Assembly (NCBI GenBank): GCA_023659865.1
Contig: JAGXON010000001.1
Coordinates: forward strand, 45,968-109,967
From: Candidatus Diapherotrites archaeon LH_S9
GTDB taxonomy: Archaea; B1Sed10-29; WALL01; JAGXON01
Reading direction: 5' to 3'
DNA: 64,000 nt
In this document: positions 4,073-36,590 of the stretch, piece by piece
How positions within the stretch are numbered: the first letter of the stretch is position 1
Layout: every line of letters begins with the position of its first letter
Notes under the pieces: model-generated
Seen by the model: only the letters and a program-made list of their open reading frames with translations
Told to the model about the DNA's origin: nothing
Databases searched by the model: none
Translations under genes and position numbers: made by a program

Positions 4073-5095
4073 TCACGACCACTTGTTCAGCCTGGACTGT
4101 TTTCCAGTTAAGTCAACGTTCCTTTTAATTCTTTCAACTGCTTTCCTAACTCTTCCTTCAGAGAAATCGTGCTCTCCTGACAAGAATTCTACAGTGTTTT
4201 CTTCGTCGGCTTCTTCCCACGAGATATCGTAGTCTTCGGTCACGTCAGGGTTTTTGAAAAGCTCTCGAATGTGTTCAAGACCTTCTGCCTCCAAATCGTT
4301 TTCTTCGAAAACTTCTTCAGCTTTCTTTCCTTCCCTGACTTTCTTCAAAGCTGTTTTCGGACCCACCCCCTTTATTCCTTCGTGGTAATCAGTTCCAATC
4401 ATGAGCGCTATCTCTATGAGTTCTTCTTTCCTTATCCCGAGCTCTTCTTCAACTTCTTTTAACTTCAAGAGCTCTGGCTTGATAGTTTTGTAAGCATTTT
4501 TGCCAGGTATTTTTCTTCTTCCAGTGACAGTCATGTTCCGCACGAGTGCCGGTGCTCCGAAGAGCATGACGTCAAAATCCTGTGAACCAACAGCCCAAGC
4601 GTCTCCTGCTTCAGCTATTTCTGATGCTTGTGCTTCTCCTTCTGAAGGTGCTTGAACTGAAGGTATTCCTAGATGATCTAAAAGTTCTTTTGATTGCGCC
4701 ACCATCTTTTTAGAGAGCGAGGTTGCTTGCTGAGCGTGCTTCCTGGCCTCTTTTTCTTTTCCTTTCTCTAGGGCTTCTTCCCATTTCTCTCTGGCTTTCT
4801 TCCTGATTTTAACTCTTTTTTTTAGTTCTTCAGATTTTTTTTCAGGCGGTTCTCCATCGAAAACGAACACGGGTTTTATGCCGTTTTCTGTAAGTCTAGA
4901 GGTTCTGTAGAGCAAGCCGCTCAAGTGCGACGTGATTTCTCCTTCGGAGTTGGTTAAAGGAGATCCGTCTCTTTGCCTGATTATCGCTAGGAATTGATAA
5001 AGAGTGTTGTATGCGTCTATAGCGATTATTCTTCCGTTCAGTGCTTCTAGTTCTGTTTCTTTTGCAGGAAGAATGTCCCCTAAATCGACTCCCAT
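4073..5095 (-). CDS. fen: Flap endonuclease 1 (FEN-1)
   Basis: N-domain (GRIIAIDAYNTLYQFL), I-domain and H3TH regions are present. The C-terminus has a PIP-like tail. Length is 340 aa. Confidence 0.85.
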   Translation of the reverse strand: MGVDLGDILPAKETELEALNGRIIAIDAYNTLYQFLAIIRQRDGSPLTNSEGEITSHLSGLLYRTSRLTENGIKPVFVFDGEPPEKKSEELKKRVKIRKKAREKWEEALEKGKEKEARKHAQQATSLSKKMVAQSKELLDHLGIPSVQAPSEGEAQASEIAEAGDAWAVGSQDFDVMLFGAPALVRNMTVTGRRKIPGKNAYKTIKPELLKLKEVEEELGIRKEELIEIALMIGTDYHEGIKGVGPKTALKKVREGKKAEEVFEENDLEAEGLEHIRELFKNPDVTEDYDISWEEADEENTVEFLSGEHDFSEGRVRKAVERIKRNVDLTGKQSRLNKWS

Positions 5096-5136
5096 GAAAG
5101 AGTAATAGGTTCAGTTCAGTTAAAATAGTTGGGGGT

Positions 5137-5511
5137 TTAACCCGAGAGCGGTGTCCCATTTCCTTTTTCTCTTAGCATTAAGAACGCAATCACTAACCCG
5201 ATAGCTACCAGGAAACCTACTGAAACGAATCCGCCTCCTAGTACCATTAACCCTGTTACTGGTACTGAAGGAACTGATTCTGAGCTGAAAGACTGTGTTT
5301 CCTCTGTTCTCGCGGAGGTAATGCAGTCAGAGCAGTTTCCTAGTTCTTTTTCTCCAGCTGTGCATGCTCCGTCTTCATAGCACTGTACTTCTCCGGATAT
5401 TGAGCAGTCTGGACAAGACTTGGTTTCTTTTGAAAGATCACAAATATTGTCGTAGTTGCATGCTGCGAACGCTGTTGAAAGTATCACGAGCAAAGCTAGT
5501 AACTTTTTCAT
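5137..5511 (-). CDS. Small secreted Cys-rich protein with a C-terminal TM anchor
   Basis: There is a signal peptide, eight Cys in the N-terminal half, a Ser/Pro linker and a C-terminal hydrophobic segment followed by REKG. Confidence 0.4.
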   Translation of the reverse strand: MKKLLALLVILSTAFAACNYDNICDLSKETKSCPDCSISGEVQCYEDGACTAGEKELGNCSDCITSARTEETQSFSSESVPSVPVTGLMVLGGGFVSVGFLVAIGLVIAFLMLREKGNGTPLSG

Positions 5512-19178: not shown

Positions 19179-19631
19179 GTGAGTAATATGACTTATAAAA
19201 ATACTCCGATTCCGGAAGACAAGGACCCAGAAGACTATACCCATAACGAAAGAAGGGCAGAAATACTAAAACATATCATAGATGCTGGCCTAAGCCGTAG
19301 AGTAAATCAGACGGAATTAGCTCAGAGATATGAAGCTTCCCAACCACAGATATCTCGGGACTTTAAAAGGATAAAGGAAGAAATACGGGACACTATTGGA
19401 AACGATATACAGGTGGATGCTTATGCTCTATACCAAAGTTCTATAGCTAAGTTACTTGACCAGGAGAGACCTTATTTAGCTTGTAAGGTTATGGATGACT
19501 ATCTAAAGTTTATATATGGTATAGGAATAGAAAAATCACCTGAAAAAATAGATAGTGAGTGCTCTGATCTTAGGGAACGCTTGTCTGAAGCGGCTAAAAA
19601 AATTGACAAGGAAGATTTTAAGGAGAAGTAA
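19179..19631 (+). CDS. HTH DNA-binding protein, candidate terminase small subunit
   Basis: A winged-helix/HTH segment (LSRRVNQTELAQRYEASQPQISRDFKRI) is present. Its position immediately upstream of terL, separated by 2 nt, supports the call. Confidence 0.4.
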   Translation: MSNMTYKNTPIPEDKDPEDYTHNERRAEILKHIIDAGLSRRVNQTELAQRYEASQPQISRDFKRIKEEIRDTIGNDIQVDAYALYQSSIAKLLDQERPYLACKVMDDYLKFIYGIGIEKSPEKIDSECSDLRERLSEAAKKIDKEDFKEK

Positions 19632-19633
19632 AA

Positions 19634-21025
19634 GTGAATAAAAAGCAAATTACTGAAAACGAAGCAGAGAAATTAATACTCACGAGGAAAGGACGATTTG
19701 CAGTAATTAAAGAAATATTTAATGTACAACCAACACCAGGACAAATGGATATAATAGAATCCATTGCATTAAAGTCTCATTTAAAACGAGTAGTGATCTC
19801 TGCATATACACAATACGGAAAAACGTGGAGCATTGCTATAGGGATATTACTCTATATCTGGCTCCAGGAGAACGATGGTAAAAAAATCGATGTCGTCGCG
19901 CCGAATGAGCAGAGCAAGATACTGGGAGATTATATTGCAAAGCTTATTGCTGGCTGCCCTGTGCTCGGACCTTCACCCCTCAAAAAGACTAACAGGAAAA
20001 GAGAGACCCTTAAGAAAGAAGTCAGCCGTAAACACTTAACTTTCACTAACGACTGTGAATTAAGGATATTGAGTGCACAGGGCCCAGCAGAGAGACTGAT
20101 GGGTCATGGCACGGATTTGCTGGTAATCGATGCAGCTTGTCTGATTGACCCTGAGGTTTATCGCTCTAAGATTAGTCGTGTGTTAGGAGATTCTCCTGAC
20201 ACGAAGCTCGTGGAAACCGGTAATCCATTGAATAAAAATAATCAGATGTGGGAGCATTGGACCGACCCTAATTTCAAAAAAATTCATGTTCCTTACACTG
20301 TTGGTTTAGAAGAAGGACGGGTGAGTGAAGACGTTATAGAAGAGCAACGAAGAGAACTCGACAGTACAACCTTTAAAGTCCTATACAAAGCGGAATTCCC
20401 AGACACTGTCGAGCAAGGACTGATTAGACACTCCTGGAAAGAGAAAGCAGTCCAGAGAGACCCGTTCGACCTAAAAGAAAGCCAGGAAATCGTTGGAATA
20501 GACGTTGCCGAATTCGGTGAAGATAAGACAGTTATAACCACCACAAAACAACTCAATAATAAAGTCAATGTAACAAAAGTAGAATCCTGGGAACGACTAG
20601 ACACCACGGAAACGGCGGATAAAATAGCTGACCACTTAGAAGGACATGAATACCTAGTAGTAGACGCAATAGGGGTTGGGAGCGGCGTAGCTAGCCGCCT
20701 CAAGCAAAAAGGATTCCAAGTAAACGCTATGAAAGTCAATAAAAGTCCCACAAACGAGAAACACAGGTTTACAAACAAGAAAGCGCAATACTATTGGAAA
20801 CTACGCGGTTTATTCGAAGATGGGAGAATCCAACTAAAAGAAGACATGAAAAACAAGGATAAGCTAGAAAAACAATTAAGTCAAATACAATACGAATTCA
20901 ACTCAAAAGAAAAGATTAAGATAAATGACCCACGAAAATCTCCCGATTACGCTGGCTCGTTGATGCTGGCTTGCAGTAAATCCCACGCTGGAACAGGGGG
21001 CGCTATAGTCGGAATTCGTTTTTAA
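19634..21025 (+). CDS. terL: Terminase large subunit (ATPase plus RNase-H-fold nuclease)
   Basis: Walker A (AYTQYGKTWS) and Walker B (DLLVIDAA) are present. The C-terminal nuclease begins VGIDVAEFGEDKTV. The length of 463 aa is typical. Confidence 0.6.
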   Translation: MNKKQITENEAEKLILTRKGRFAVIKEIFNVQPTPGQMDIIESIALKSHLKRVVISAYTQYGKTWSIAIGILLYIWLQENDGKKIDVVAPNEQSKILGDYIAKLIAGCPVLGPSPLKKTNRKRETLKKEVSRKHLTFTNDCELRILSAQGPAERLMGHGTDLLVIDAACLIDPEVYRSKISRVLGDSPDTKLVETGNPLNKNNQMWEHWTDPNFKKIHVPYTVGLEEGRVSEDVIEEQRRELDSTTFKVLYKAEFPDTVEQGLIRHSWKEKAVQRDPFDLKESQEIVGIDVAEFGEDKTVITTTKQLNNKVNVTKVESWERLDTTETADKIADHLEGHEYLVVDAIGVGSGVASRLKQKGFQVNAMKVNKSPTNEKHRFTNKKAQYYWKLRGLFEDGRIQLKEDMKNKDKLEKQLSQIQYEFNSKEKIKINDPRKSPDYAGSLMLACSKSHAGTGGAIVGIRF

Positions 21026-21067
21026 AGAAAAACCATTTTAAAGAAGGTAGTATATAAAGTTAAGTGA

Positions 21068-22342
21068 ATGCATATGAATTTTAAAGAAACACTACAGAAA
21101 CCAGTAAACTATATCAAGAACATGTATCACAAAGACACATCTACCGGCACTGATGCCGGGGACTACAAGATACCACATTTTCCTTATAAAGACCGGTATA
21201 TATACGATGTTGCTAACTACAGCAGTGTCTTGAACAATATTCTTCAAACTATCCAGACCGAGTTATTTAAAAATGGCTGGGAGTTCATTCCCAAGTATGA
21301 ATATATTTGCACCAGCTGCGGGAGAGAGTACGACCACGAGCCCGAACAGAAGAACGATGAAGGCGTACCTATCTGTAGTAACTGCGGTAACATAGTAACC
21401 AAACCCGACAAAAGCAGCATAAGAAACGTGAAGAAACAGCTCAGAAGAGACGTGAACTATAATAATCAAACGCTTACTGAAGTTCTCAAAGAAATCGAAT
21501 GGGACTTAGACGCTTACGACTCCGCTTACTTATATTTAGAGAAGAATTATGAACACGATTCGGACGGCAAACTCGTGAACACTGAAATCGACGAGATAGT
21601 TAAACTGCAACCAATCAGAATGAGAATAATCAAGAACGATAGAGGCATGCCAGCTACTGACCAAAAAGGAGACTCCATCAGATTCTGCCCAGAACATAGG
21701 GGCAAAAAAACAAAGAGAGATTACTGTGAGCAATGCGGACGAGAGACCCTCCCCACCTATTTTGTTAAGGAGAAGGGAGAGGAAAAAAAGTACTTCAGTA
21801 ATGATGAAGTCAAACACCTGAAGAAATACCGCCCGACAGAACCATACGGCTGGAGCCCAGTCATCCCTCTCTGGCAAAAAATACATATCCTTTATTTCAT
21901 GAATAGAGATAAGCCACCGAAGGGCCCCAAGAACTTTGCGAAGTACACAGAAATGAGGAACGGGCTCAAAAAAGAAGTAGATTCAACATACGGAGTCATG
22001 CCATTGTTCCAGGGAAACCTCGAAGGAGTAGGAGGATTGAACAACGAAGGCCAAGAGATTACTATAACCAACAGTGCTATGAGAAAAGGGCAAGAAGTAT
22101 TCAATAAGAAACTATTTCCCTGGCTTTGTGACCAACTGAGTTTAGAACATTGGACCATCGAACTCAATGAAGTCGAAACCAGAGACGTTGCGCAAGAAAA
22201 GCAACAGATTAACCAACGACGTATCCAGAACGCTGTGCAGATGAGTCAGATAGGATTCAACGTAGAATTGGATGAAAAAGAAGATAATAAATACGTCTCA
22301 TTCAAGTATAGCGGGAAAGCGGAAAAACCGAGTGAACAGTAA
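21068..22342 (+). CDS. Portal-like protein (positional inference) with two inserted zinc ribbons
   Basis: A 424-aa protein directly downstream of terL. CTSCG...CSNCGN and CPEH...CEQCG pairs are present. The portal identity is not established by motif. Confidence 0.3.
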   Translation: MHMNFKETLQKPVNYIKNMYHKDTSTGTDAGDYKIPHFPYKDRYIYDVANYSSVLNNILQTIQTELFKNGWEFIPKYEYICTSCGREYDHEPEQKNDEGVPICSNCGNIVTKPDKSSIRNVKKQLRRDVNYNNQTLTEVLKEIEWDLDAYDSAYLYLEKNYEHDSDGKLVNTEIDEIVKLQPIRMRIIKNDRGMPATDQKGDSIRFCPEHRGKKTKRDYCEQCGRETLPTYFVKEKGEEKKYFSNDEVKHLKKYRPTEPYGWSPVIPLWQKIHILYFMNRDKPPKGPKNFAKYTEMRNGLKKEVDSTYGVMPLFQGNLEGVGGLNNEGQEITITNSAMRKGQEVFNKKLFPWLCDQLSLEHWTIELNEVETRDVAQEKQQINQRRIQNAVQMSQIGFNVELDEKEDNKYVSFKYSGKAEKPSEQ

Positions 22343-24319: not shown

Positions 24320-24737
24320 CTGCTTTTACTTTTGGTGTTATATAAACATAAAAACATTACTTAATTTCGTAGCATTTTCTAGAATCCCCCACGCCATTTC
24401 TTTCTCACGAGGATTGTCACTAACTGCATACTCCAGACATATTTGTTGATTTGGCGCGTTTTGTTGTTCGTTTGAGTAATTTTGAAAATGCGTTCCCATC
24501 CATTCTTGTTGCATACGTTTTTGATTGCTTCCCAAATTTAAGGGGAAAAAAGGGCATCCCTCTTCTTGTTCAACGATGGGAATCCACCCACAACCTCCCT
24601 CAAGAAAAATTAGCCACTGCACAAGCCCGGAAAGACGGAAGCAAGCAGATAGACATTCCTTTTGAAGACGGAACCCTTTTCAAGTCAGAAAAACCTCGCG
24701 AAGCACACGAAATTAGAGTATTCATCAAAAAGTAATC

Positions 24738-24774
24738 AAAACCTTTAAAAACCATAATGAATACAAATTCATAT
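24738..24774 (+). promoter_or_regulatory. Archaeal promoter (TATA-like CTTTAAAAA) followed by the 8-4-8 palindrome TAATGAAT-ACAA-ATTCATAT, overlapping the predicted TSS
   Basis: The 37-nt block is nearly identical to 29613-29649. Confidence 0.55.
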
Positions 24775-24775
24775 C

Positions 24776-24928
24776 ATGACTAACGGAAGAGGAAGAAAAG
24801 GCGGAAAAGCCCTCGGGCCAGGAGGACAATGCGTTTGCCCTGAATGCGGGAAAAAAGTACCGCACGAGAGAGGCGTCCCCTGCTACAAAAAAAACTGCCC
24901 AAAATGTGGAAGCAAAATGACGAGGTAA
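24776..24928 (+). CDS. 50-aa zinc-ribbon protein with a Gly/Arg-rich N-terminus, not in the ORF track
   Basis: Translation is MTNGRGRKGGKALGPGGQCVCPECGKKVPHERGVPCYKKNCPKCGSKMTR. Two CxxC pairs are present. It ends 4 nt before the next gene and begins just after the operator. Confidence 0.5.
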   Translation: MTNGRGRKGGKALGPGGQCVCPECGKKVPHERGVPCYKKNCPKCGSKMTR

Positions 24929-24932
24929 AAAA

Positions 24933-25424
24933 ATGAAAATAGCAATACCCTCAACAGGAAAATCGATAGACAGCACGATAAGTAACATCTTTGGAAGATG
25001 CCCAGTATACATAATAGCCGAGATAAAAGAAGATCCAGAAACAGGAAAAAAAGAGATAGGAAAAGCAGAAGCCATAGAAAACCCTGCTGTCGGACAAAGA
25101 GGAGGAGCAGGAATAATGGCATCCCAAACGCTCGGCAACGAAGACGTGGACATAGTAATAGCCCCAAGAATAGGGCCAAGAGCATTCAACGTACTCCAAA
25201 AAATAGGCATAGAGATATACCAAGCCTCCGGAAACACCGTGAAACAAAACCTGGACAACTTCCTTGAAAACAAACTAAACAAGATAAACTCTCCCGGCCA
25301 GATGGGCATGGGCCCAAAACCAGGAGCTGGAAGAGGCGCAGGCAGAGGCCAGGGCGCTGGACAAGGAAGAGGACAAGGCGGTGGAGCCGGACAAGGAAAA
25401 GGTAGAGGACAAGGAAGAAAATGA
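24933..25424 (+). CDS. NifX/NafY-like (Nitro_FeMo-Co family, PF02579) protein with a C-terminal Gly/Arg/Gln-rich tail
   Basis: MKIAIPSTGKSIDSTISNIFGRCPVYIIAEI matches the dinitrogenase FeMo-cofactor-binding fold. The tail is GAGRGAGRGQGAGQGRGQGGGAGQGKGRGQGRK. Confidence 0.6.
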   Translation: MKIAIPSTGKSIDSTISNIFGRCPVYIIAEIKEDPETGKKEIGKAEAIENPAVGQRGGAGIMASQTLGNEDVDIVIAPRIGPRAFNVLQKIGIEIYQASGNTVKQNLDNFLENKLNKINSPGQMGMGPKPGAGRGAGRGQGAGQGRGQGGGAGQGKGRGQGRK

Positions 25425-26668
25425 GCGATAACCTAAAGAAAGGAGAGGACGCAGCAGGAAAAGTGAGCATAGTTACTTTTCTTCTAGCTGCAGGGAAAGG
25501 AATCGCTGGAGTGATGACTGGAAGCATAGCTTTGCTCACAGACGCTCTTCACTCCACTGTCGACTTAGTCGTGGCGGTTGCTTCCTGGCTTAGTCTAAAG
25601 CTTTCTCAAAGAGAAGCCGATGAACAGTTCCAGTACGGGTACTACAAAGCAGAGAACCTGGCAGCGTTCGTAATCTCTTTTTTCATCCTCTACGCAGCTT
25701 TCAACTTTGCAATAGAAGGTATAAAAAGGCTCTCGGTTGTAGAACCAATAAAACTGCCTTTCCTGGCAATGGGAGCTACGCTAGTATCAGCAATCGTTTC
25801 CGGATACCTAGTGAAATACTTAAGGGAAAAAGGAGAGGAAACAGGATCTGCATCGCTTTTGGCGAACGCAAAAGAAACTCTTGCAGACGTAATGTCTTCA
25901 TTAGTTGTCTTCGTCGCCATAGTGTGCACTTACCTAGAGATACCTTACGTTGAAGGAGTAGTCACAATAGGAATATCGTTATTTATATTCAAAGAAGGTT
26001 TCGAAACCATTAAAGACTCTTCTTTTGCTTTAATGGACGTCAGCCCAAGCAAAAAACTAGAAAAAGAAGTTGCAGAAGCAGCTAAAAAAGTGAACGGAGT
26101 CAAAGAAGTCAATAACCTGAAACTAAGAAAATCCGGTCCATTCATCCTGGGCGACCTGGACGTTCAGATAAGTAAGTCAGCCGACGTGGAAAGAGCTCAC
26201 ACAGTAGCAGACGAGATAGAGGAAAAAGCAAAAAGAAACGTGAAAGAACTTGAATCAATAGCCGTGCAAGTCGAGCCATTCAAACCAAAGGAAAGAACAG
26301 TTGCAATACCTGTAAAAGAAGATAAAGGAATGAAATCAGAGGTGAGCAATCACCTGGGAAGATGCGAACACATCGTTTTCCTGAACATCACTCCAGAAGA
26401 AAAAACAATAGAAAAAATCATGAAGAACGAGTACAAACAAAAGAAAGTTAGAGCTGGATTATCGCTGTCAAGAGAGTTATGCGAGCAAAAAACAGATGCA
26501 GTAGTAGTGCAAAGAATCGGAGAGATAAGCTTCCACACGCTAAGAGACTGTTTCACCGACATATACAAAACCGAGGGAAAAACAGTGGAAGAAGTATCAA
26601 AAAAAGTAAGGAAAAACCAGCTAAAGCTCTTGAAAGAACCTACAAAAAGATCAGGAGCCAAAAAATGA
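25421..26668 (+). CDS. Cation diffusion facilitator (CDF) metal efflux transporter fused to a C-terminal NifX-like domain
   Basis: Six TM segments with the HSTVDLV motif and a cytoplasmic CDF domain. The C-terminal ~110 aa contain IAIPVKEDKGMKSEVSNHLGRCEHIVFLNI, a Nitro_FeMo-Co pattern. An ATGA overlap links it to the upstream gene. Confidence 0.6.
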   Translation: MSDNLKKGEDAAGKVSIVTFLLAAGKGIAGVMTGSIALLTDALHSTVDLVVAVASWLSLKLSQREADEQFQYGYYKAENLAAFVISFFILYAAFNFAIEGIKRLSVVEPIKLPFLAMGATLVSAIVSGYLVKYLREKGEETGSASLLANAKETLADVMSSLVVFVAIVCTYLEIPYVEGVVTIGISLFIFKEGFETIKDSSFALMDVSPSKKLEKEVAEAAKKVNGVKEVNNLKLRKSGPFILGDLDVQISKSADVERAHTVADEIEEKAKRNVKELESIAVQVEPFKPKERTVAIPVKEDKGMKSEVSNHLGRCEHIVFLNITPEEKTIEKIMKNEYKQKKVRAGLSLSRELCEQKTDAVVVQRIGEISFHTLRDCFTDIYKTEGKTVEEVSKKVRKNQLKLLKEPTKRSGAKK

Positions 26669-27030
26669 AAGTAGCCATACCCACAGACTCAGGAAAAGTC
26701 GCTCCTCACTTCGGAAGAGCCCCAGAATACACTATCGCCATCATCGAAGAAAAAGAAGTCAGCAAAAAACAAAAAATAGATAATCCTGGCCACAAACCAG
26801 GTTATCTGCCGAAATTCTTCAACGAAAAAGGCGTAGACGTCATGCTGGTTAAAGGGATAGGAAGAAGAGCAGTTTCCTTGTTCAACCAGTTCGACATCGA
26901 TATTGTGACAGGAGCTCAAGGCAAGATAGATGAAGTGCTCGAAAAATTCGTTGAAGAAGAACTAGATGAAAAAAGCAATCCATGCAAACCAGGTAAAGGA
27001 AAAGACTACGGAATAGAAAAGGAGGATTAA
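26665..27030 (+). CDS. NifX/NafY-like (Nitro_FeMo-Co family) protein
   Basis: MKVAIPTDSGKVAPHFGRAPEYTIAIIEE is present. I placed the start at 26665, coupled to the CDF stop, rather than the longer track ORF. Confidence 0.6.
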   Translation: MKVAIPTDSGKVAPHFGRAPEYTIAIIEEKEVSKKQKIDNPGHKPGYLPKFFNEKGVDVMLVKGIGRRAVSLFNQFDIDIVTGAQGKIDEVLEKFVEEELDEKSNPCKPGKGKDYGIEKED

Positions 27031-27031
27031 A

Positions 27032-27775
27032 TTGACCAAACTAATGATGATCCTGGCAGCAAGTCTTCTTTCAGCCGTTCTCTGCAGCCTAGGCGTCCTA
27101 GTCATCTGGAGATTCAGAGAATTCGGCGAAAAATCAATGAATTACTTCATGTACTTTGCTTCAGGAGTACTAGTATCAGCTGCATTCATGATAGCTGCTC
27201 CAAAAGCATTCAGCATGAACGAATACGGTCCCATGTTCATGTTGCTCGGTTTCTTATCCATCTTCCTTCTGGACAGATTCATAAACCTTTACGTTTGCCA
27301 CGGTCACACAAAAAAATGTACAAGAGGATTCAGAATAAGCGTAGTAGCGGCAATAGGAATAGCGCTTCATTCATTCGTTGACGGAATAATATACTCAACA
27401 ACATTCACCGTATCCTCCTTCCTTGGTGTGATGACCACTCTAGGACTGATATTCCACGAATTTCCTGAAGGGATAATAACATTCATACTATTCCTTAAAG
27501 GAGGGTTCAGTGAAAAAAAATCCTTGATTTACTCAATACTGATAGCAGCATTAACCACCCCCCTAGGAGCAATAATTAGTTACCCATTCATAAGCACGCT
27601 GAGAGGACCTAAACTAGGAGCAATGGTAGGCCTAACAGCTGGAGTGCTCGCATTCGTAGGAGCATCACACCTGCTGCCGGAAGCGGAAAGAAAAAGCAAG
27701 AAGTACGGAATAATAGCTTTCCTGCTCGGAATAGCAGTAGCATCAGTTCTGGTTGTGGTAAAAGGAGGAGTATGA
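27032..27775 (+). CDS. ZIP-family metal (Zn/Fe) transporter
   Basis: The HEFPEG motif, His-containing TM helices and a length of ~247 aa are consistent with the ZIP family. Confidence 0.65.
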   Translation: MTKLMMILAASLLSAVLCSLGVLVIWRFREFGEKSMNYFMYFASGVLVSAAFMIAAPKAFSMNEYGPMFMLLGFLSIFLLDRFINLYVCHGHTKKCTRGFRISVVAAIGIALHSFVDGIIYSTTFTVSSFLGVMTTLGLIFHEFPEGIITFILFLKGGFSEKKSLIYSILIAALTTPLGAIISYPFISTLRGPKLGAMVGLTAGVLAFVGASHLLPEAERKSKKYGIIAFLLGIAVASVLVVVKGGV

Positions 27776-27847
27776 AAACAAACGCGAAAAACAAAGCTAG
27801 CATTAATCCTGACATCATTAATCGCTCTCGCAATATACGTGAATCAA

Positions 27848-27875
27848 TTGAAAAGATTTCAACACTGAATTTCAA
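27848..27875 (+). promoter_or_regulatory. Palindromes TTGAAA-AGA-TTTCAA and TGAA-T-TTCA upstream of the MinD-ferredoxin ATPase pair
   Basis: Both are perfect inverted repeats 13-40 nt upstream of the ATG at 27888. Confidence 0.35.
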
Positions 27876-27887
27876 GGAGAAAATAAA

Positions 27888-28718
27888 ATGAAGATAGCTG
27901 TAACAGGGGGAAAAGGCGGAACAGGAAAAAGCACAGTAGCAACAGCCCTAGCAACACAACTAGCAAAAGAAAATAAAGTCTTGCTTGTAGATGCAGACGT
28001 TGACTGTCCTGACGACGACCTAATCCTCTCCATAAAGACCCGGAAGACGAAAGACGTTGAAAACATGATACCGGAAATAAATGAAGAAAAATGCATCAAA
28101 TGCGGAAAATGCGCTGAAGCATGTAAAGAAAACGCTTTAGTTCAAGTAAAAAAACAAACTCCGTTTCTCGTTGAAGACCAGTGCACTGGCTGCAAAGCAT
28201 GCAAATACACGTGCCCAGTTAACGCGATAACGGAATCAAAACAAAAAATAGGCGAGATAAGCAGAGGAGAAAACAGCAAGATAAGTTTAGTGAAAGCAGA
28301 CCTCAAACCAGGAATAGAGGAATCAAGCCTCGTTGTCAACGCCTTAAAACGATACGTGGAAAAAGAAGAAGACAAATACGACCACATCATAATCGACACG
28401 GCAGCTGGAACCCACTGCCCCGTAATAGCAGCATTAACAGGAGCAGAAAAAGCTCTGGCCGTGACAGAACCAACACCACTCGGAAACCATGACCTGAAAC
28501 TAATTCTAGAGCTTCTGAAAAAGCTCGAAGTTCCAGCGAAAACAGTTATAAACCGTTCAGACATCTCAAGCAAGAAAGAAACTGAAGAAATAGCAGAAGA
28601 ATTCAGTTCACCTGTGATAACTGGGATACCTTACAGTAAAAAAATCCAGGAAGACTACGCAGCAGGAAAACCGATCGAACACGAACAAATAAATAAAATA
28701 GCGGAGGCGATAAAATGA
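27888..28718 (+). CDS. MinD/ParA-superfamily P-loop ATPase with an inserted 2x[4Fe-4S] ferredoxin domain (COG1149-like)
   Basis: The deviant Walker A GGKGGTGKST is present, as are CIKCGKCAEAC and CTGCKACKYTCP. Confidence 0.75.
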   Translation: MKIAVTGGKGGTGKSTVATALATQLAKENKVLLVDADVDCPDDDLILSIKTRKTKDVENMIPEINEEKCIKCGKCAEACKENALVQVKKQTPFLVEDQCTGCKACKYTCPVNAITESKQKIGEISRGENSKISLVKADLKPGIEESSLVVNALKRYVEKEEDKYDHIIIDTAAGTHCPVIAALTGAEKALAVTEPTPLGNHDLKLILELLKKLEVPAKTVINRSDISSKKETEEIAEEFSSPVITGIPYSKKIQEDYAAGKPIEHEQINKIAEAIK

Positions 28719-29602
28719 AGGAACTGACAGTACTATCAGGAAAAGGAGGAACAGGAAAAAGCAGTATAACAGCATCACTTGCAGCAATCTTATCAGAAGA
28801 AAAAGAAATAGTCACAACGGACTGCGACGTGGACGCCTCGAACCTGTCCATACTTTTAGGAAACAAGAGACCGTACAGCACTAAAGAAATATCCACGAAC
28901 GAGAAAGCCTTTGTGAAAAACCCGGAGAACTGCAGAGGAAAAAACTGTAAGAAGTGCGTGGACCTGTGCGCATTCTCAGCAATCGAATGGAACGAAGAAA
29001 AAGAAATACCGGAGATAAACAAGTTCCTGTGCGAAGGGTGTGGCTCCTGCAAAATAGCGTGTCCAGAAGACGTCTTCGAACTGAAAAAAGTGAATAACGC
29101 TACTCTAACCGAAACAGATACTGATTACGGATTTCCTCTAGTATCAGGACAGCTGAAGATGGGAGAAGCAGGCTCAGGAAAAGTAGTAGACCTCATAAAA
29201 AAGATAGCAAAAGAAAAAAACAGAGAAATACTCCTATCAGATTCCGCAGCCGGAATAAGCTGCCCAGTAATAGCTTCAGTAAGAGACAGTGACTACGTTG
29301 TAGCAGTCACCGAACCATCGCCAGCGGCTTTAAGCGACCTGAAAAAAGCTCTAGAAATAGTTGAGCACTTTGGAATAAGCTACGGGATAATCATAAACAA
29401 GTACGACTTGAACAAAAAATCCACTGAAGAAATAGAAAAATTTGCAGAAGAAAAAGACGCCAAAATCCTTGGAAAAATTCCTTTCGACAAAAAATTCGTG
29501 GAATCGCTGGTGAAGATGAAACCAGTAGTGGAAGAAAGCAAGGAACATCGAAAGATGTTCTCCAGTATTCTGGAAAAAATCATGGAAGACTCCAAATTAT
29601 GA
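28715..29602 (+). CDS. MinD/ParA-superfamily P-loop ATPase with an inserted ferredoxin domain (paralog)
   Basis: GKGGTGKSS is present, plus CRGKNCKKCVDLCAF and CEGCGSCKIACP. An ATGA overlap links it to the upstream paralog. Confidence 0.75.
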   Translation: MKELTVLSGKGGTGKSSITASLAAILSEEKEIVTTDCDVDASNLSILLGNKRPYSTKEISTNEKAFVKNPENCRGKNCKKCVDLCAFSAIEWNEEKEIPEINKFLCEGCGSCKIACPEDVFELKKVNNATLTETDTDYGFPLVSGQLKMGEAGSGKVVDLIKKIAKEKNREILLSDSAAGISCPVIASVRDSDYVVAVTEPSPAALSDLKKALEIVEHFGISYGIIINKYDLNKKSTEEIEKFAEEKDAKILGKIPFDKKFVESLVKMKPVVEESKEHRKMFSSILEKIMEDSKL

Positions 29603-29612
29603 ATACCTAACC

Positions 29613-29649
29613 AAAACCTTTATAAAGTATAATGAATACAAATTCATTA
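29613..29649 (+). promoter_or_regulatory. Archaeal promoter (CTTTATAAA) plus the perfect 8-4-8 palindrome TAATGAAT-ACAA-ATTCATTA
   Basis: Near-identical to 24738-24774. It sits about 25 nt upstream of the ATG at 29675. Confidence 0.55.
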
Positions 29650-29674
29650 AAGTTTTTATGGAGGTGAACAAAAA

Positions 29675-30061
29675 ATGCCATTTGGAGACGGAACAGGCCC
29701 AAGAGGCCAAGGACCAATGACAGGAAGAGGATTAGGGTTCTGCGCAGGCTTTAACAACCCAGGATTCACCCAAGCAGCACCAAGAAGAGGGCTCGGAAGA
29801 GGCCAAGGTTTCGGAAGAGGCCAAGGTTTCGGAAGAGGTCGAGGTTTCGGAAGAGGACCTGGATTTGGAGCAAGATTTGCCCCATCAACTGCAAGAACTC
29901 CTGCAAGAACTCCTGTAAGAGCACCTGCTCAGAGGATGACAAAAGAAGATGAAACGAATCTACTGAATCAGGAGAAACAAGCAGTGGAAAGAGAGCTGGA
30001 AACGCTCAAAAACGAGCTCGAAAATATAAAAGAGAGAATAAACAAAATAAGTGAAGAATAA
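29675..30061 (+). CDS. DUF5320-like protein with a Gly/Arg/Phe-rich N-terminal half and a C-terminal coiled coil
   Basis: MPFGDGTGPRGQGPMTGRGLGFCAGF is followed by GRGQGFGRGQGFGRGRGFGRGPGFG. The C-terminal heptad-like segment is EKQAVERELETLKNELENIKERI. Confidence 0.55.
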   Translation: MPFGDGTGPRGQGPMTGRGLGFCAGFNNPGFTQAAPRRGLGRGQGFGRGQGFGRGRGFGRGPGFGARFAPSTARTPARTPVRAPAQRMTKEDETNLLNQEKQAVERELETLKNELENIKERINKISEE

Positions 30062-30362
30062 CATGACTCGACCTAGAAAACCACGAACAGTAAGAAGAAA
30101 GCCAGGAGCCACATACTTCAAACCAAGAGCAGTTCCCCTGTCCACCTTGAAAGAGGTTACGATATCAGTGGGCGAGCTCGAAGCAATACACTTATCTGAT
30201 GCAGAAGGAAAAGACCAGAAAGAAGCAGCAGAAGAAATGAACATCTCGCAACCAACTTTCAGCAGGCTCCTGGCGTCAGCAAGAAAAAAAGCAGCGGAAG
30301 CTCTGTACAAAGGAAAAGCAATAAAAGTAGAAGGGGGAGAATACAAGCTAAAGGAGGATTAA
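30051..30362 (+). CDS. DUF134/UPF0251-family predicted DNA-binding regulator (sigma-70 region-4-like HTH)
   Basis: The sequence RPRKPRTVRRKPGATYFKPRAVPL...ELEAIHLSDAEGKDQKEAAEEMNISQPTFSRLLASARKKAAEAL matches the family. Confidence 0.65.
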   Translation: MKNNMTRPRKPRTVRRKPGATYFKPRAVPLSTLKEVTISVGELEAIHLSDAEGKDQKEAAEEMNISQPTFSRLLASARKKAAEALYKGKAIKVEGGEYKLKED

Positions 30363-30363
30363 A

Positions 30364-30570
30364 ATGCCTGAAGGCGTGCCAAGAACTGATGAAGAAAGAA
30401 AAGAAAGACATGAAGAGAAGTACGGAGATACTAACATACCTGAAGAGCGTAAGGGAAAAGCATCAGAGGCACTGGAACAAAAGAAAAACTTAACTCCTGG
30501 AATAGAAATAATCCTTGTGATAGCAATCCTAATTTCATTATGGATAATCGCTCAAAGATGGATCATCTGA
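30364..30570 (+). CDS. Small protein with a C-terminal TM helix
   Basis: 68 aa with a charged N-terminus and a hydrophobic C-terminus. Confidence 0.3.
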   Translation: MPEGVPRTDEERKERHEEKYGDTNIPEERKGKASEALEQKKNLTPGIEIILVIAILISLWIIAQRWII

Positions 30571-30613
30571 ACAAACTTTTATATAATCTAATAAGATCAA
30601 AAAGTAAGAAAAG

Positions 30614-32017
30614 ATGAATCTAAAAAAATTGTTTTTTGGACTCTTAACGATACTTATATTATTTGCACCAGCAGCAACAGCAGCAAAAACTTGCACAACC
30701 TACTTCACTGGAGTGGGATGCCCACACTGCGCTAAAGCAGACCCGGTAGTTCTTGAAGACTACCCACAAGACTTCAATAGCTTAGTTGTAATAGAGTACG
30801 AGATATACCAAAAACAATCCAATGCACCTCTTCTCTACAACTTCAACTCAAATTATAACTCGGGCCTAGGCGTGCCTGCCCTCATATTCGGGGAAGACAA
30901 TTCACTTGTTGGAGATCGGCCAATACTTCAGAAAGGGGAAAAATCAGTTTCTGATCACGAAGGAAACGCTTGTCCAACCTCGATAGGTAAAATAAAGTTC
31001 GATAGCCTTGATTTATCAAAACTCGAGGGCTACCCCAAGATCTGGGCCAACAAAAGAGTAATCCTTGGCAAGCCTGATAATTCAAGCTCGAGCGAAGTTC
31101 TGAAATCGCTCTTGTTCGAGGAAAATCTAGTAGAAGAACTGGAAAAAATGAACAAAACCTCTAAAAGCCCTTCCTCAGTCCCGTTATCCGGAAAAAGCGT
31201 TAACTTTGATAACGCCGTCCAGATAGATGGAGCAACACTTCAATGGAATGGGAAAGGATTGGAAAAGCAAGGAAATGGGACCAGTGCCACCAGACCACAA
31301 GGAGATTACTCCAGGATCAGTCCTGACCTCACTTTGCCAAAGATAGTTGGACTAGCTGCAGTAGATGCTGTCAACCCGTGCGCTCTAGCAGTTCTGAGCC
31401 TCATGCTTATCTCAATAATCACTTACAATCCAAAAGAAAAGAGGAACATACTCCTGGCAGGACTGGCGTTCGTTGCATCTGTTTTCGTCATGTACCTGTT
31501 CTACGGCCTAGTTATAGTGAAATCATTTCAGTTGATTCAAGCATTAACATCAGTTAGAGTAATGCTTTACAAAGCTCTAGGTGTTCTAGCGATAGTTCTT
31601 GGTATACTTAACTTAAAGGACTTCGTGCACTACAAGCCCGGAGGATTTGGCACGGAGATGCCGAAGTTCCTAAGACCGAAAGTGAAGAAAATAATCTCTG
31701 GAATTACTTCACCTAAAGGCGCTTTCCTGGTCGGTGCTTTCGTAACGCTGTTCCTTTTACCATGCACAATCGGCCCCTACGTCATAGCCGGAGGAGTACT
31801 ATCCACACTAGGTTTACTTAAAACTCTTCCAGCGCTGTTACTCTACAACGCAATCTTCGTTCTTCCAATGCTAGCGATAACCATAATCGTTTACATGGGA
31901 ATGAGTTCAATAGAAGACGTCTCAGAATGGAGAGAGAACAACATACGCTACCTGCACTTAATCGCAGGAGCAATCATCTTAGGGCTTGGAATCGCAATGG
32001 TTCTAGGGCTGGTATAA
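30614..32017 (+). CDS. Thiol:disulfide interchange membrane protein (CcdA/DsbD family) with an N-terminal thioredoxin-like CPHC domain
   Basis: There is a signal peptide. GCPHCAK is present, plus the transmembrane Cys motifs AVNPCALAVL and LLPCTIGPY. Confidence 0.6.
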   Translation: MNLKKLFFGLLTILILFAPAATAAKTCTTYFTGVGCPHCAKADPVVLEDYPQDFNSLVVIEYEIYQKQSNAPLLYNFNSNYNSGLGVPALIFGEDNSLVGDRPILQKGEKSVSDHEGNACPTSIGKIKFDSLDLSKLEGYPKIWANKRVILGKPDNSSSSEVLKSLLFEENLVEELEKMNKTSKSPSSVPLSGKSVNFDNAVQIDGATLQWNGKGLEKQGNGTSATRPQGDYSRISPDLTLPKIVGLAAVDAVNPCALAVLSLMLISIITYNPKEKRNILLAGLAFVASVFVMYLFYGLVIVKSFQLIQALTSVRVMLYKALGVLAIVLGILNLKDFVHYKPGGFGTEMPKFLRPKVKKIISGITSPKGAFLVGAFVTLFLLPCTIGPYVIAGGVLSTLGLLKTLPALLLYNAIFVLPMLAITIIVYMGMSSIEDVSEWRENNIRYLHLIAGAIILGLGIAMVLGLV

Positions 32018-34325: not shown

Positions 34326-34373
34326 AGAATCCATATACAGTTTTTTGCTAGCTTTTTTCTAAAAAAAGCTGAG

Positions 34374-34465
34374 TGGACCTGAGGGGAGTTGAACCCCTGA
34401 CCTCGTCCACTTTGTCGAATTCTTCCGTCGCCAAGGACGCGCTCTTCCAACTGAGCTACAGGCCC
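34374..34465 (-). tRNA. tRNA-Ala (anticodon GGC) with a canonical-position intron of about 19 nt and a G3:U70 pair
   Basis: Minus-strand read: GGGCCTG-TA-GCTC-AGTTGGAA-GAGC-G-CGTCC-TTGGCG[intron]T-GGACG-AGGTC-AGGGG-TTCAACT-CCCCT-CAGGTCC-A. The G3:U70 pair is the alanine identity element. Confidence 0.65.
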
Positions 34466-34473
34466 AAGCGGTT

Positions 34474-34710
34474 TTATGGGGATATGTAGGTTATGTTGTC
34501 GCCTCTTAAGAACACAGAGCCTAGTTTTTGTTTGACTTGATCGTTTTCTAGTTTTTCTGCGTCCTCTAAGAAGGCGTTTATGTGGACGTCGAAGGTCTTT
34601 AGCGTTCCTCTGTATTTTGAGCCGTTCTTTAGCTTTATTAGTACTTTGTTGTCGATTGCGTTGTTCAAAAAGTCGAAAGGTCTTTTGTCTACCATTGTTT
34701 TTTTCACCAT
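34474..34710 (-). CDS. Sm-like archaeal protein (LSm/SmAP)
   Basis: Sm1/Sm2 motifs are present (VLIKLKNGSKYRGTLKTFDVHINAFLEDAE ... VFLRGDNI). Confidence 0.75.
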   Translation of the reverse strand: MVKKTMVDKRPFDFLNNAIDNKVLIKLKNGSKYRGTLKTFDVHINAFLEDAEKLENDQVKQKLGSVFLRGDNITYISP

Positions 34711-34735: not shown

Positions 34736-35524
34736 TTATAAGTTTAATAGTTCTTTTATTCTTTTTATTATTCCTTTGGTTTCCTTCGGTTTCTTGATTC
34801 TTTCTGGAGGCTCTTCGTCAAGCAGGTCTGCCGCTAGCCCGATTATTGCCTTGGCCGCTGGATTCTGTGGATTGGTTAAAACTATTGGTTCCCCTTTCAT
34901 CGTGGATTCTCTTGTTTCAGAGTCTTCGGATATTGTTGCAAGTACGTCGGTTTGCACGGTCTTCCTTATCTCTTCGTTGTCCATTTCTTTTCTCATTCCT
35001 TTTTTCATGTTCACTACCGTGCCCAGAATGTCTAGTCCGAGTTTTCTTTCAGCTATTACTGCCATTTTCATGGAGTCCGTAACTGCTGACGGTTCCGGCA
35101 TGGTGACAATCATGGCTTCGTCTGAAGAATTAAGTGCTGCTAAAGTGCTTTCTTCTACTCCTGGCGCCGTATCAATAAGTATAATGTCTGCGTTAGGTGA
35201 AATAGTGTCTATTATTTTCTTGAACTTCTTTCCATCTATTTCTTCGATGTTTTCTTCCGATAAAGCAGCAGGCATGTACATCGTGTTCTCGTTTATCTCG
35301 TATAAAGCGTCTTCTACGTCTGCTTGTCCTATTAAAACGTCCTGAAGACTTATTGGTGTTCCTTTTTTTCCTAGCATCAGCGAAATGTTCGCCATCCTTA
35401 TGTCCGCGTCAACTATTATCACTTTTTTGTCGAATTCGGCGAGCGCTAGGCCTAGGTTGATTGCAAGAGTTGTTTTTCCTACCCCCCCTTTTCCTGAGGT
35501 TATTGCTATTTTTCTTGCCATCAT
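34736..35524 (-). CDS. minD: MinD/ParA-family cell-division/partition ATPase
   Basis: The deviant Walker A KIAITSGKGGVGKTT and a length of 262 aa are consistent with MinD/ParA. Confidence 0.8.
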   Translation of the reverse strand: MMARKIAITSGKGGVGKTTLAINLGLALAEFDKKVIIVDADIRMANISLMLGKKGTPISLQDVLIGQADVEDALYEINENTMYMPAALSEENIEEIDGKKFKKIIDTISPNADIILIDTAPGVEESTLAALNSSDEAMIVTMPEPSAVTDSMKMAVIAERKLGLDILGTVVNMKKGMRKEMDNEEIRKTVQTDVLATISEDSETRESTMKGEPIVLTNPQNPAAKAIIGLAADLLDEEPPERIKKPKETKGIIKRIKELLNL

Positions 35525-36111
35525 TTTTCCTCCAGGTACTCGTTCATTTTCTTTTCAACTTTTTCCGCGGATTGTTCTCCTGACGTAAGTTTTTTCTCGA
35601 ACTCTATTGCTTTTTCTTCCTCGGTCTTGGCCTCGAAGTCAGGTATGTTGTATTGCTTGAGTATTTCTTCCCTGGTCTTTTCTGCTTCTTCTACCTCGTT
35701 TTCTTCGTACTCGTAGCTGAACGACATTGGAATCGAGGCGTCTGTCCTCTCTTTGCTTCTGGGTTCAAGCAGCAGGAAGTCCTCGTTGAACACTTTCATC
35801 AATTCGCATTGTTCTCCTGAAACAGTGTAAATTTCGTAAATTCCTTGTTCAGCGTCCAAAGCGTTCAAGCACCTTTTCAAAGCTTTTTCAGCTACGTAAT
35901 CACTTTCGTAGTTCAAGTAATCGTAGTGAGCTCCTATGACCCTTCCTTTCTCTATTACAAATATTCCTTCCTCCATCCCCGTTCTTCCTTTCAGGGTTAT
36001 AGTCATGTATCCAGTTTTTTCTTTGGATAGAACTTGCAGCAGGTCCTGTATTGCTGAATCTCCCTCGATTTTCCTGTTCTTTATCGAACATTTACCTACA
36101 GGTATCTTCAT
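35521..36111 (-). CDS. Hypothetical protein translationally coupled upstream of minD, with an acidic C-terminus
   Basis: Shares a 4-nt overlap with minD. No firm motif was found. Confidence 0.35.
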   Translation of the reverse strand: MKIPVGKCSIKNRKIEGDSAIQDLLQVLSKEKTGYMTITLKGRTGMEEGIFVIEKGRVIGAHYDYLNYESDYVAEKALKRCLNALDAEQGIYEIYTVSGEQCELMKVFNEDFLLLEPRSKERTDASIPMSFSYEYEENEVEEAEKTREEILKQYNIPDFEAKTEEEKAIEFEKKLTSGEQSAEKVEKKMNEYLEEK

Positions 36112-36590
36112 TCTTCTGCCTCTTCGACTTCACCCATCATTACTACTTCATCAGCAGTATTTTTTAATGCTGTGGAAAACCCGGGCTCGACCCCTAAGAC
36201 GATAGTGTTCTTTCCTTTGGACTTGGCCTTCATCAGAACCGGTTGAAAATCAGCGTCTCTAGTCATCAGAGCAATTGTGTCTATCGCAGGATTGAAAACT
36301 AGTACTATTGCTTCAGCAGCCATGGCCACATCCACGTCCGTGCCGGTTACGATTGGTTCAAAGCCTTGTGTGGTTACTGCTTCGATGAGTTTATCTGACG
36401 CGTACTGGTCGAGAAAAACTTTCCCAACCTTCATGGTGCCATAATCCTCTATCTTTTCTTTTACTTCCTTCAGATTTATGTTGAATTCTTTTCTCAAGAT
36501 GTTTGGGCCGTCTATTAATATGCCTACCTTCTCCTGTTTTTTAACTAGCCCTAGCTTGTCTTTAACTTCTTCTAATACAATAAAAATCAC
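36108..36590 (-). CDS. NYN-domain (LabA-like) predicted RNase
   Basis: GILIDGPNI...TGTDVDVAMAAEA...MTRDADFQPV matches the NYN/LabA fold acidic residues. Confidence 0.6.
   Translation of the reverse strand: MIFIVLEEVKDKLGLVKKQEKVGILIDGPNILRKEFNINLKEVKEKIEDYGTMKVGKVFLDQYASDKLIEAVTTQGFEPIVTGTDVDVAMAAEAIVLVFNPAIDTIALMTRDADFQPVLMKAKSKGKNTIVLGVEPGFSTALKNTADEVVMMGEVEEAEE

Follow-up and report, generated by a model that had tools for sequence, protein, structure and literature searches.

The 64,000-nucleotide (nt) stretch of DNA from Candidatus Diapherotrites archaeon LH_S9 analysed here over its full length, which we call the window, carries a gene cluster in which two promoters share a short block containing a palindrome. 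The two palindromes, at 24755-24774 and 29630-29649, appear to be members of a widespread and apparently undescribed regulon of the DUF134 (UPF0251) protein with a defined operator. We consider it probable that DUF134 is an autoregulated repressor which, bound to these predicted operators (O1 and O2), would occlude the core promoters of two operons predicted to handle iron and iron-sulfur; in kind, this would be a classical autoregulated helix-turn-helix (HTH) repressor with a promoter-overlapping palindromic operator. The analysis established the sequence of the sites, their specificity, a linkage to DUF134 genes that holds in both directions, a fixed promoter geometry, a covariation between recognition helix and operator, and a gene fusion.

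From these observations we infer that DUF134 physically binds the sites, which way it regulates, where transcription starts and what signal is sensed; the way it regulates (activator or repressor) is the least certain point. In the proposed mechanism, a DUF134 dimer would read two TGAAT half-sites (TGAA-N6-TTCA) with an HTH of the sigma-70-region-4/DeoR type and, placed on a box that reaches from 3 nt after the TATA box to the predicted start, would block recruitment of RNA polymerase. Operon 1, with genes for a Cys6-His ribbon protein, IssA-like NifX proteins, a CDF-NifX fusion, a ZIP transporter, a small open reading frame (ORF) and two MinD/ferredoxin ATPases, would be repressed in this way, and so would operon 2, which encodes DUF5320, DUF134 itself and a protein of 68 amino acids (aa). 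Because the DUF134 gene lies within operon 2, the circuit would be autoregulated. The signal would probably be iron, iron-sulfide or Fe-S status, most likely acting through the ribbon protein and perhaps through DUF5320.

The promoter elements of the two sites, including the A-rich stretches that resemble a B recognition element (BRE), are as follows.

24738-24743, + strand: A-rich, BRE-like AAAACC of promoter 1; the same stretch precedes the TATA box in other window promoters and in related loci and is generic.
24744-24751, + strand: TATA box TTTAAAAA of promoter 1, 32 nt before the ATG, like other leaderless-type promoters of the window.
24755-24774, no strand: predicted operator O1 TAATGAATACAAATTCATAT (DUF134 box), a 20-bp palindrome; exact 18-mer repeat, 21.7 bits.
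29597-29616, no strand: possible auxiliary partial box TTATGAATACCTAACCAAAA, of which only the left half is perfect; 11.6 bits, not significant by score alone.
29619-29626, + strand: TATA box TTTATAAA of promoter 2, preceded by AAAACC at 29613-29618 and 3 nt from the box.
29630-29649, no strand: predicted operator O2 TAATGAATACAAATTCATTA (DUF134 box), a 20-bp palindrome; exact 18-mer repeat, 24.0 bits.

A preliminary description of this DNA had pointed to a shared 37-nt block of TATA box plus palindrome at 24738-24774 and 29613-29649. Its two strings are exact to the letter and agree at 32 of 37 positions, and a repeat search shows that the similarity spans 49 nt as a direct repeat of 84% identity. 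Only one part of the block is specific to the two sites. When the 70 nt upstream of each long ORF in the window were compared, ordinary promoters showed TTTAWA ~30-32 nt upstream of the ATG with an A-rich stretch before it, a layout that points to leaderless transcripts. The block thus opens with the generic BRE/TATA layout of this genome, its first 14 nt (AAAACC plus TTTAWAAA), and near-matches to this part turn up elsewhere in the window. The specific portion is the 20-bp palindrome TAATGAAT-ACAA-ATTCAT(AT/TA), which reads TAATGAAT-ACAA-ATTCATAT at site 1 (24755-24774) and TAATGAAT-ACAA-ATTCATTA at site 2 (29630-29649).

Exact copies of the 18-mer TAATGAATACAAATTCAT are found only at 24755-24772 and 29630-29647, and a third copy is absent from the 64-kb window even at 3 mismatches. 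Compared with this count of 2, 0.11 copies are expected, and 0 of 100 shuffles reached 2 with 3 mismatches permitted. We also built a weight matrix of the box from other genomes and scored the window with it, using 50 shuffles as control. O2 (24.0 bits) and O1 (21.7 bits) are the only strong sites in 64 kb; the next match in the window scores 11.6 bits and the best shuffle 16.3. We also rejected ATTCATCA at 24720-24727, upstream of O1, which is a right half-site lacking a left partner (-0.1 bits).

The palindromes lie closer to the TATA boxes than the ~8 nt first given: only 3 nt follow the TATA octamer in both cases (TTTAAAAA-CCA-TAATG and TTTATAAA-GTA-TAATG). The start codons at 24776 and 29675 and the 25 nt between O2 and its ATG stand as described, and the distance of 4 nt at site 1 is corrected to 1 nt, where the 20-bp palindrome ends. 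Archaeal TATA boxes are centred ~26 nt before the transcription start, so that the start is predicted, from this spacing, at or just after the end of the box at both promoters. Promoter 1 would thus give a leaderless mRNA, and promoter 2 an mRNA with a leader of ~25 nt that includes the Shine-Dalgarno sequence GGAGGTG (29660-29666). The layout of O1, ending 1 nt before the ATG, matches leaderless DUF134 genes elsewhere (d = 9-12). A scan of the cluster for sigma-70 promoters and terminators gave nothing above shuffles.

Support for a dedicated regulator comes from ~200 other genomes and metagenome contigs (80 genome loci and 120 metagenome stretches). Across genomes, the box has the consensus TTATGAAT-ATAT-ATTCATAA and stands directly before DUF134 or a DUF5320-DUF134 pair, and it occurs in contigs of DPANN archaea, Bathyarchaeia, Methanomicrobia and Methanosarcinales as well as in contigs labelled Patescibacteria. 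The 80 loci, all from different species, were found via an alignment of 33 DUF134 proteins, and their ORFs were labelled by BLASTP against the window proteins. A strict box (no more than 1 mismatch among the 10 outer positions plus a symmetric core, within -700 to +90 of the DUF134 gene) is present in 43 of the 80, and its density of 0.78 per kb near the DUF134 gene compares with 0.011 per kb beyond 2.5 kb, a ~70-fold difference. A loose definition (2 mismatches, up to 1.8 kb upstream) finds boxes in 68 of the 80 loci; it is noisy, with 0.31 sites per stretch expected by chance, and we rely on the strict count instead. In several genomes, as in the window, boxes precede at least two transcription units of the cluster (ribbon, NifX, MinD, DUF5320 or DUF134 genes).

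Since this forward set had been chosen for DUF134, a reverse scan was made without reference to genes, using the exact 20-mer consensus TTATGAATATATATTCATAA on a metagenome collection. It matched at least 120 stretches, and among the 120 listed, 105 have a gene of a cluster family within 3 kb that reads away from the box. DUF134 lies beside the box in 84/120 of the listed matches, and in 71/120 a DUF5320, DUF134, MinD or NifX gene starts within 120 nt of it. In 15 more of these stretches a divergent DUF5320-like ORF is found at the box, and other neighbours are sporadic. Where no cluster gene was present, the listed stretch was mostly a short contig whose end lies close to the box. The contigs include near-duplicates, and removal of duplicates left 195 distinct sites. 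Elsewhere, too, DUF5320 is the gene most often directly behind the box. The 20-mer matched once in 2.9 million viral contigs and is not a viral element. The preliminary description had held that occurrence at many unrelated loci would speak against its proposal; among the matches listed, the box is instead restricted to one gene cluster. The linkage in both directions, together with boxes before several cluster units in other genomes, supports its suggestion that the two operons form one regulon.

The position of the box within the promoter is equally constrained. Aligned promoters elsewhere show a fixed module of A-rich BRE, TTTAWATA, 3 nt and box: among the 195 distinct sites, the distance from the end of a TTTAWAWA octamer to the box is exactly 3 nt in 74, as at both window sites, and 4 nt in 23. 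Like the ribbon gene at 24776, many DUF134 genes elsewhere start 0-2 nt past the box. Bacterial-type contigs show two arrangements: in 18 sites TTGACA is found exactly 8 nt upstream of the box, so that the central TATATT forms the -10 element at a spacing of 17 nt, and in 10 sites it is found 19 nt upstream, so that the -10 element falls at the left edge of the box. The box hence covers the polymerase-occupied region in TATA-type and sigma-70-type promoters alike, which argues for repression. This fixed core-promoter position across genomes fits the earlier proposal of an operator at the expected transcription start.

If the direction were reversed, DUF134 would bind the box as an activator or dual regulator, an alternative that we regard as unlikely but as the most serious one. 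About 1 in 6 strong sites has a second site nearby, with spacings that cluster at 22-25 and 33-34 nt, and this second box at times lies upstream of the TATA box, where archaeal activators bind. In the window, the partial site 29597-29616 lies upstream of the TATA box of promoter 2, 33 nt from O2, which matches the spacing of second sites elsewhere, and DUF134 is related to sigma-70 region 4, a polymerase-recruiting domain. The primary box, however, is always found between TATA and start codon in archaeal-type promoters or over the -10 element in bacterial-type promoters, and such positions are associated with occlusion in archaea and bacteria.

Covariation points to DUF134 as the binder. The 99-aa protein starting at an ATG is identical to database protein P0001, and a 103-aa form with a GTG start has no exact database match. 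The 99-aa protein carries the invariant columns of the 33-sequence alignment, namely the N-terminal RPR...TYFKP, the ISQPTF.RLL..ARKK helix and the C-terminal motif GKAI.(I/V).GG; across the 33 proteins the recognition helix ISQPTF.RLL.SARKK is nearly invariant. Among 154 distinct DUF134 proteins from the loci compared, residue 63 is Q (ISQPT/ISQST) together with T at box position 8 (TGAAT) in 118/121 cases, and R (ISRPT) together with C at this position (TGAGC or TGAAC) in 15 of 18; helices with HQST accompany TGCAT half-sites in 3/3. One archaeal contig (L058) encodes two DUF134 paralogues, at 978-1280 (-) and 4804-5139 (+), each behind its own box type: the paralogue with an ISRTT helix lies behind TTATGCAC-AAAT-GTTCAAAA and the other, with a VSQPT helix, behind two TGAAT boxes, which suggests separate regulons that would not cross-talk in one cell. 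If residue 63 sets specificity, Q63R would favour TTATGAGC/GCTCATAA or TGAAC boxes.

Contigs that are labelled Patescibacteria or candidate phyla radiation (CPR), or that bear TTGACA, carry the archaeal-type TGAAT box with ISQST/ISQPT helices (among them loci L004, L022, L047, L061, L135, L137, L151, L175, L181 and L182), and Chloroflexota, Nitrospirota and Zixibacteria have a TGAGC box with an ISRPT helix. This pattern suggests that regulator and operator were transferred together between DPANN archaea and CPR bacteria. The best DUF134 homologues are found in metagenome-assembled genomes of the DPANN type, the species of the window itself is absent from the genome representatives, whose top match has 62% identity, and one homologue search returned more than 1,200 members in archaea and anaerobic bacteria.

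The nearest sequences and folds to DUF134 in the PDB, which holds no solved DUF134 structure, are the DNA-binding domain of Bacillus subtilis DeoR and sigma-factor region 4, and an AlphaFold2 model of DUF134 shows an HTH like these two. The DeoR domain (7bhy_A) is the nearest solved structure to the HTH, with a profile E-value of 4.4e-5 and ~40% identity over ~40 residues, and Foldseek superposes the two with a root-mean-square deviation of 0.7-1.2 Å over 41-42 residues. The helix NISRPTVSRLL of DeoR, a member of the SorC family (PDB 7bhy, 8r7y), corresponds to NISQPTFSRLL in DUF134. The left operator half of DeoR, ATTGAACAAAATTTCAAT, shows the same TGAA-N6-TTCA geometry as the DUF134 box, and DeoR binds as a dimer to a palindrome in an operator that overlaps the promoter, as proposed here for DUF134 (PMC11229326). 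Structures of DeoR bound to DNA show contacts of R39 to the G of TGAA and of R34 to the base beside the half-site on the spacer side (PMC11229326). In a HMMER alignment, R39 aligns with the invariant R68 of DUF134 and R34 with residue 63, the position of the Q/R switch; the base contacted by R34 maps to box position 13, which pairs with position 8 and thus belongs to the switching base pair.

DUF134 probably reads DNA in the manner of DeoR. The two proteins differ in other respects: DeoR has ~313 aa and a large sugar-phosphate effector domain that forms tetramers, whereas DUF134 has 99 aa and no such domain, with a conserved N-terminal RPR...TYFKP and a beta-hairpin at the C-terminus, and its distribution spans archaea and bacteria. 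Profile and fold comparison recognise the N-terminal DeoR-type HTH, but Pfam and NCBIfam show no ~250-aa effector domain, and DUF134 is therefore no member of the SorC/DeoR family. A role as sigma-70 or extracytoplasmic function sigma factor was rejected, as the matches are of the region-4 type only (residues ~34-81; Pfam, NCBIfam) and region 2 was not found. Together, the two-way linkage, the helix-box covariation and the DeoR-like operator geometry support the earlier naming of DUF134 as the binder, and the comparative evidence as a whole supports the operator of a dimeric repressor, as predicted from sequence.

We consider it quite improbable that the box is bound by a protein other than DUF134, such as DUF5320, the ribbon protein or an unlinked metal regulator like Fur or DtxR, and that DUF134 is just one of the regulated genes. 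Linkage alone cannot separate a regulator from its targets, DUF5320 is most often the gene directly behind the box, and the half-site TAATGA resembles Fur-box half-sites. The box nevertheless co-varies with the recognition helix of DUF134, and at many loci it stands directly before DUF134 with DUF5320 not nearby. DUF5320 and the ribbon protein have no DNA-binding fold recognisable by Pfam, no Fur or DtxR gene lies near the cluster, and no other transcription factor is encoded within ~10 kb of it. The Fur box is a 19-bp inverted repeat with a 7-1-7 (or 9-1-9) arrangement. Fur and Zur boxes share with the DUF134 box an AT-rich inverted repeat with TAATGA-like half-sites before metal-handling genes, but the spacing TGAAT-N4-ATTCA within a 20-bp repeat departs from 7-1-7, and the box tracks the DUF134 helix.

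We think it very unlikely that the shared block is simply a duplicated strong promoter, in which the palindrome would be a promoter or initiator element of a passive kind that no dedicated regulator binds. The BRE and TATA box do lie within the block, and the unusual centre ACAA in both window copies suggests a common origin. Against this, other window promoters have BRE and TATA without the palindrome, sigma-70-type promoters contain the same palindrome at other offsets, and hundreds of contigs show it in one gene cluster only. Least credible of all is an RNA hairpin at the 5' end of the transcript acting on stability or translation: a stem of 6-8 bp is possible and part of the palindrome might be transcribed at promoter 2, but folding predicts only weak hairpins, at -3.5 and -5 to -6 kcal/mol (z-scores of -0.75 and -0.43), Rfam gives no match, leaderless genes have their ATG 0-2 nt past the box, which places the box outside the RNA on its upstream side, and the half-sites are conserved in sequence without compensatory changes.

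Several points weigh against DUF134 as an autoregulated repressor of both operons. The box is absent under the loose criteria in 12 of the 80 loci, 5 of which have less than 650 nt of upstream sequence. The forward linkage alone is biased, because its loci were picked for DUF134, and the reverse test takes away most of this bias. The covariation largely follows clades (archaea and CPR versus Chloroflexota and other bacteria), so that its cases are not independent. The mapping of DeoR contacts comes from a 3.7 Å structure and assumes base numbering on the printed strand. Co-repression of the CDF and ZIP transporters follows no simple homeostatic logic, and the putative sensor role of the ribbon protein is based on fusion only.

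This fusion is found in some DUF134 proteins elsewhere, which carry at their C-terminus a GRG-rich linker and a ribbon of the form GPGG-C-x-C-P-x-C-G...H..G-x-P-C....C-P-x-C-G. Over 39 aa, the 50-aa ribbon protein of the window is 59-62% identical to the C-terminal extension of two such fusions (P0064, P0025); other DUF134 proteins end in a different CxxC...CxxC tail. From such fusions one would expect the ribbon to act jointly with DUF134, and the ribbon is the obvious candidate for a metal- or Fe-S-sensing module and sensor partner. The window DUF134 has no cysteine and no ligand-binding domain; the lack of cysteine and the fusions elsewhere suggest that the signal is most likely sensed through the ribbon. 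As a tentative extension, which we hold with much less confidence than the repressor itself, DUF134 and the Cys6-His ribbon, separate or fused, could form a previously unrecognised, ancient two-part iron-sulfur-responsive switch in control of IssA-like storage and trafficking of iron-sulfur. By binding an Fe-S cluster or an iron-sulfide species, the ribbon would set the affinity of DUF134 for the box; the same operator would be used in DPANN archaea, methanogenic archaea and CPR bacteria, and a variant differing by one residue and one base pair in Chloroflexota and other anaerobic bacteria. GRG-type, Gly/Arg-rich low-complexity segments occur in the ribbon protein (24776-24928), the tail of the first NifX protein (25330-25424), DUF5320 (29675-29880) and the linkers of DUF134-ribbon fusions (GRG-rich in P0064, P0025 and P0069), and many stand-alone ribbon proteins begin with the DUF5320 motif MPRGDGTGP.

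The genes of the two predicted operons are listed below; for them, Pfam agrees with the earlier annotation.

24776-24928, + strand: Cys6-His ribbon protein of 50 aa, first gene of operon 1; the translation has 6 Cys and 1 His conserved in the family.
24933-25424, + strand: NifX-domain protein with a Gly/Arg-rich C-terminal tail, IssA-like (PF02579, 67.6 bits; tail GAGRGAGRGQGAGQGRGQGGGAGQGKGRGQGRK).
25421-26668, + strand: CDF cation-efflux transporter fused to a NifX domain (PF01545, PF16916, PF02579); its start overlaps the preceding stop.
26665-27030, + strand: NifX-domain protein (PF02579, 69.9 bits), like the C-terminal domain of MrpORP (NCBIfam).
27032-27775, + strand: ZIP-family metal transporter, ZupT-like (PF02535, 85.3 bits).
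27772-27891, + strand: 39-codon ORF joining the ZIP gene to the first MinD gene, with an ATGA overlap at each end and the Shine-Dalgarno sequence AGGAGGA just upstream.
27888-28718, + strand: MinD/Mrp-type P-loop ATPase with a 4Fe-4S ferredoxin insert (PF01656, PF10609, Fer4).
28715-29602, + strand: second MinD/Mrp-type ATPase with a ferredoxin insert, last gene of operon 1 (PF01656, PF10609, Fer4_7); its start overlaps the preceding stop.
29675-30061, + strand: DUF5320 protein with N-terminal MPxGDGTGP, GRG repeats and a C-terminal coiled coil (PF17253, 87.3 bits).
30063-30362, + strand: DUF134/UPF0251 HTH protein of 99 aa, the proposed repressor (PF02001, 91.4 bits; cut-off 27).
30364-30570, + strand: 68-aa protein with a C-terminal hydrophobic helix, 1 nt after DUF134; homologues in 3 related loci.

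All junctions between 24776 and 29602 are overlaps or gaps of 1-4 nt, and operon 1 is therefore probably a single unit. The MinD pair had been described as having a different palindrome, TTGAAAAGATTTCAA at 27848-27862. This sequence, actually at 27849-27863, lies within the translationally coupled 39-codon ORF, which fills the apparent 112-nt gap between the ZIP and MinD genes: its start overlaps the ZIP stop and its stop the MinD ATG (translation MKTNAKNKASINPDIINRSRNIRESIEKISTLNFKEKIK). This unannotated ORF occupies what seemed to be an intergenic promoter region. We rejected TTGAAAAGATTTCAA as a variant box (TGAA-N5-TTCA), given a score of -11.5 bits, which is the best in the ORF stretch, no TATA box at the right distance, and its position inside a coupled ORF. 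The MinD pair thus appears to have no promoter or operator of its own; with this sequence inside an ORF coupled to both ZIP and MinD, operon 1 probably runs through to 29602.

In operon 2, the 68-aa protein matched no Pfam family and is probably encoded by the last gene; the next gene (30614) has its own TATA box and no DUF134 box. A 467-aa SfLAP/DsbD_2-like membrane protein encoded behind operon 2, within 30571-32017, has its own TATA box AAACTTTTATATAA and no DUF134 box, and a homologue directly behind DUF134 in many other genomes makes it a conserved neighbour. For the CDF-NifX protein, the nearest NCBIfam models are MamM/MamB, MntE and FieF (iron/manganese-type), all under cut-off. This exporter (25421-26668) and the ZIP importer (27032-27775) share one operon and one predicted operator.

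The first NifX protein (24933-25424) has a Gly/Arg/Lys-rich tail of 30-40 residues. It combines a PF02579 domain with a Gly-rich cationic C-terminal tail, the two features of the NifX-type domain (IPR003731/PF02579) and tail that define the IssA clade (PMC5524996). In this respect it resembles Pyrococcus furiosus IssA (SipA), a protein of thioferrate iron-sulfur storage whose Gly-rich tail is reported to bind thioferrate, and for which that study names no regulator (PMC5524996). The window tail differs in that it lacks cysteine, and the likeness to IssA (PF2025) is one of domain and tail features. Similar gene content is also found in the anaerobe-specific orp operons of Desulfovibrio vulgaris, with NifX-domain ("Di-Nase") proteins and MinD/Mrp-type Fe-S ATPases (PMC6345978). 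To judge from the titles cited in that paper, control of the orp operons lies with sigma-54, integration host factor and a cognate activator, not with a DUF134 repressor (PMC6345978). The CDF and ZIP transporters and DUF5320 go beyond the orp content.

TATA-proximal repressors are well known in archaea: MDR1, LrpA, Phr, NrpR and TrmB have operators between TATA box and start and are often autoregulated, and their expected mechanism is a block of RNA polymerase recruitment. The DUF134 box, which ends at the predicted start, would be placed similarly, but these proteins belong to the DtxR, Lrp, ArsR-like, NrpR and TrmB families, to which the fold and box of DUF134 are unrelated, and the DUF134 box also serves sigma-70-type promoters in bacteria. 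The same operator in both promoter types would provide a clean natural case of one repressor-operator pair facing both transcription machineries.

PF02001 is listed as a protein of unknown function in Pfam (2025 copy) and PRK04217 as a hypothetical protein in NCBIfam (June 2026). We found no published account of a DUF134 regulon and, in the full-text literature, no functional description of DUF134/UPF0251, DUF5320 or the box sequence, although papers beyond that corpus may exist. An old and very widespread family is now assigned a predicted operator, regulon and specificity-determining residue, which makes its function directly testable. DUF134 would also be the first candidate regulator proposed for the anaerobe-specific NifX-domain/MinD-ATPase clusters related to IssA and orange protein; the biology and control of the archaeal clusters were posed as questions in PMC8351635.

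The neighbours of the cluster (aIF5A, an Sm-like protein and MetRS) place it on a cellular archaeal chromosome. At 19179-22342, 2.4 kb upstream of the cluster, genes for a large terminase subunit (phrog_2, E = 7e-29), a portal protein (phrog_18178, E = 4e-41) and a small HTH protein (phrog_15023) form a virus-like packaging module. We recognised no gene for a capsid there, and the module may be a provirus remnant. Downstream, ARAGORN predicts a 93-nt tRNA-like gene at 34373-34465 (-) with an undetermined four-base anticodon, possibly an intron-containing archaeal tRNA, and the Sm-like (LSM) gene at 34474-34710 adjoins it. A third ParA/MinD-type ATPase, which lacks a ferredoxin insert, is encoded at 34736-36590 (-) in an operon with DUF2226 and NYN-domain proteins that carries no DUF134 box.

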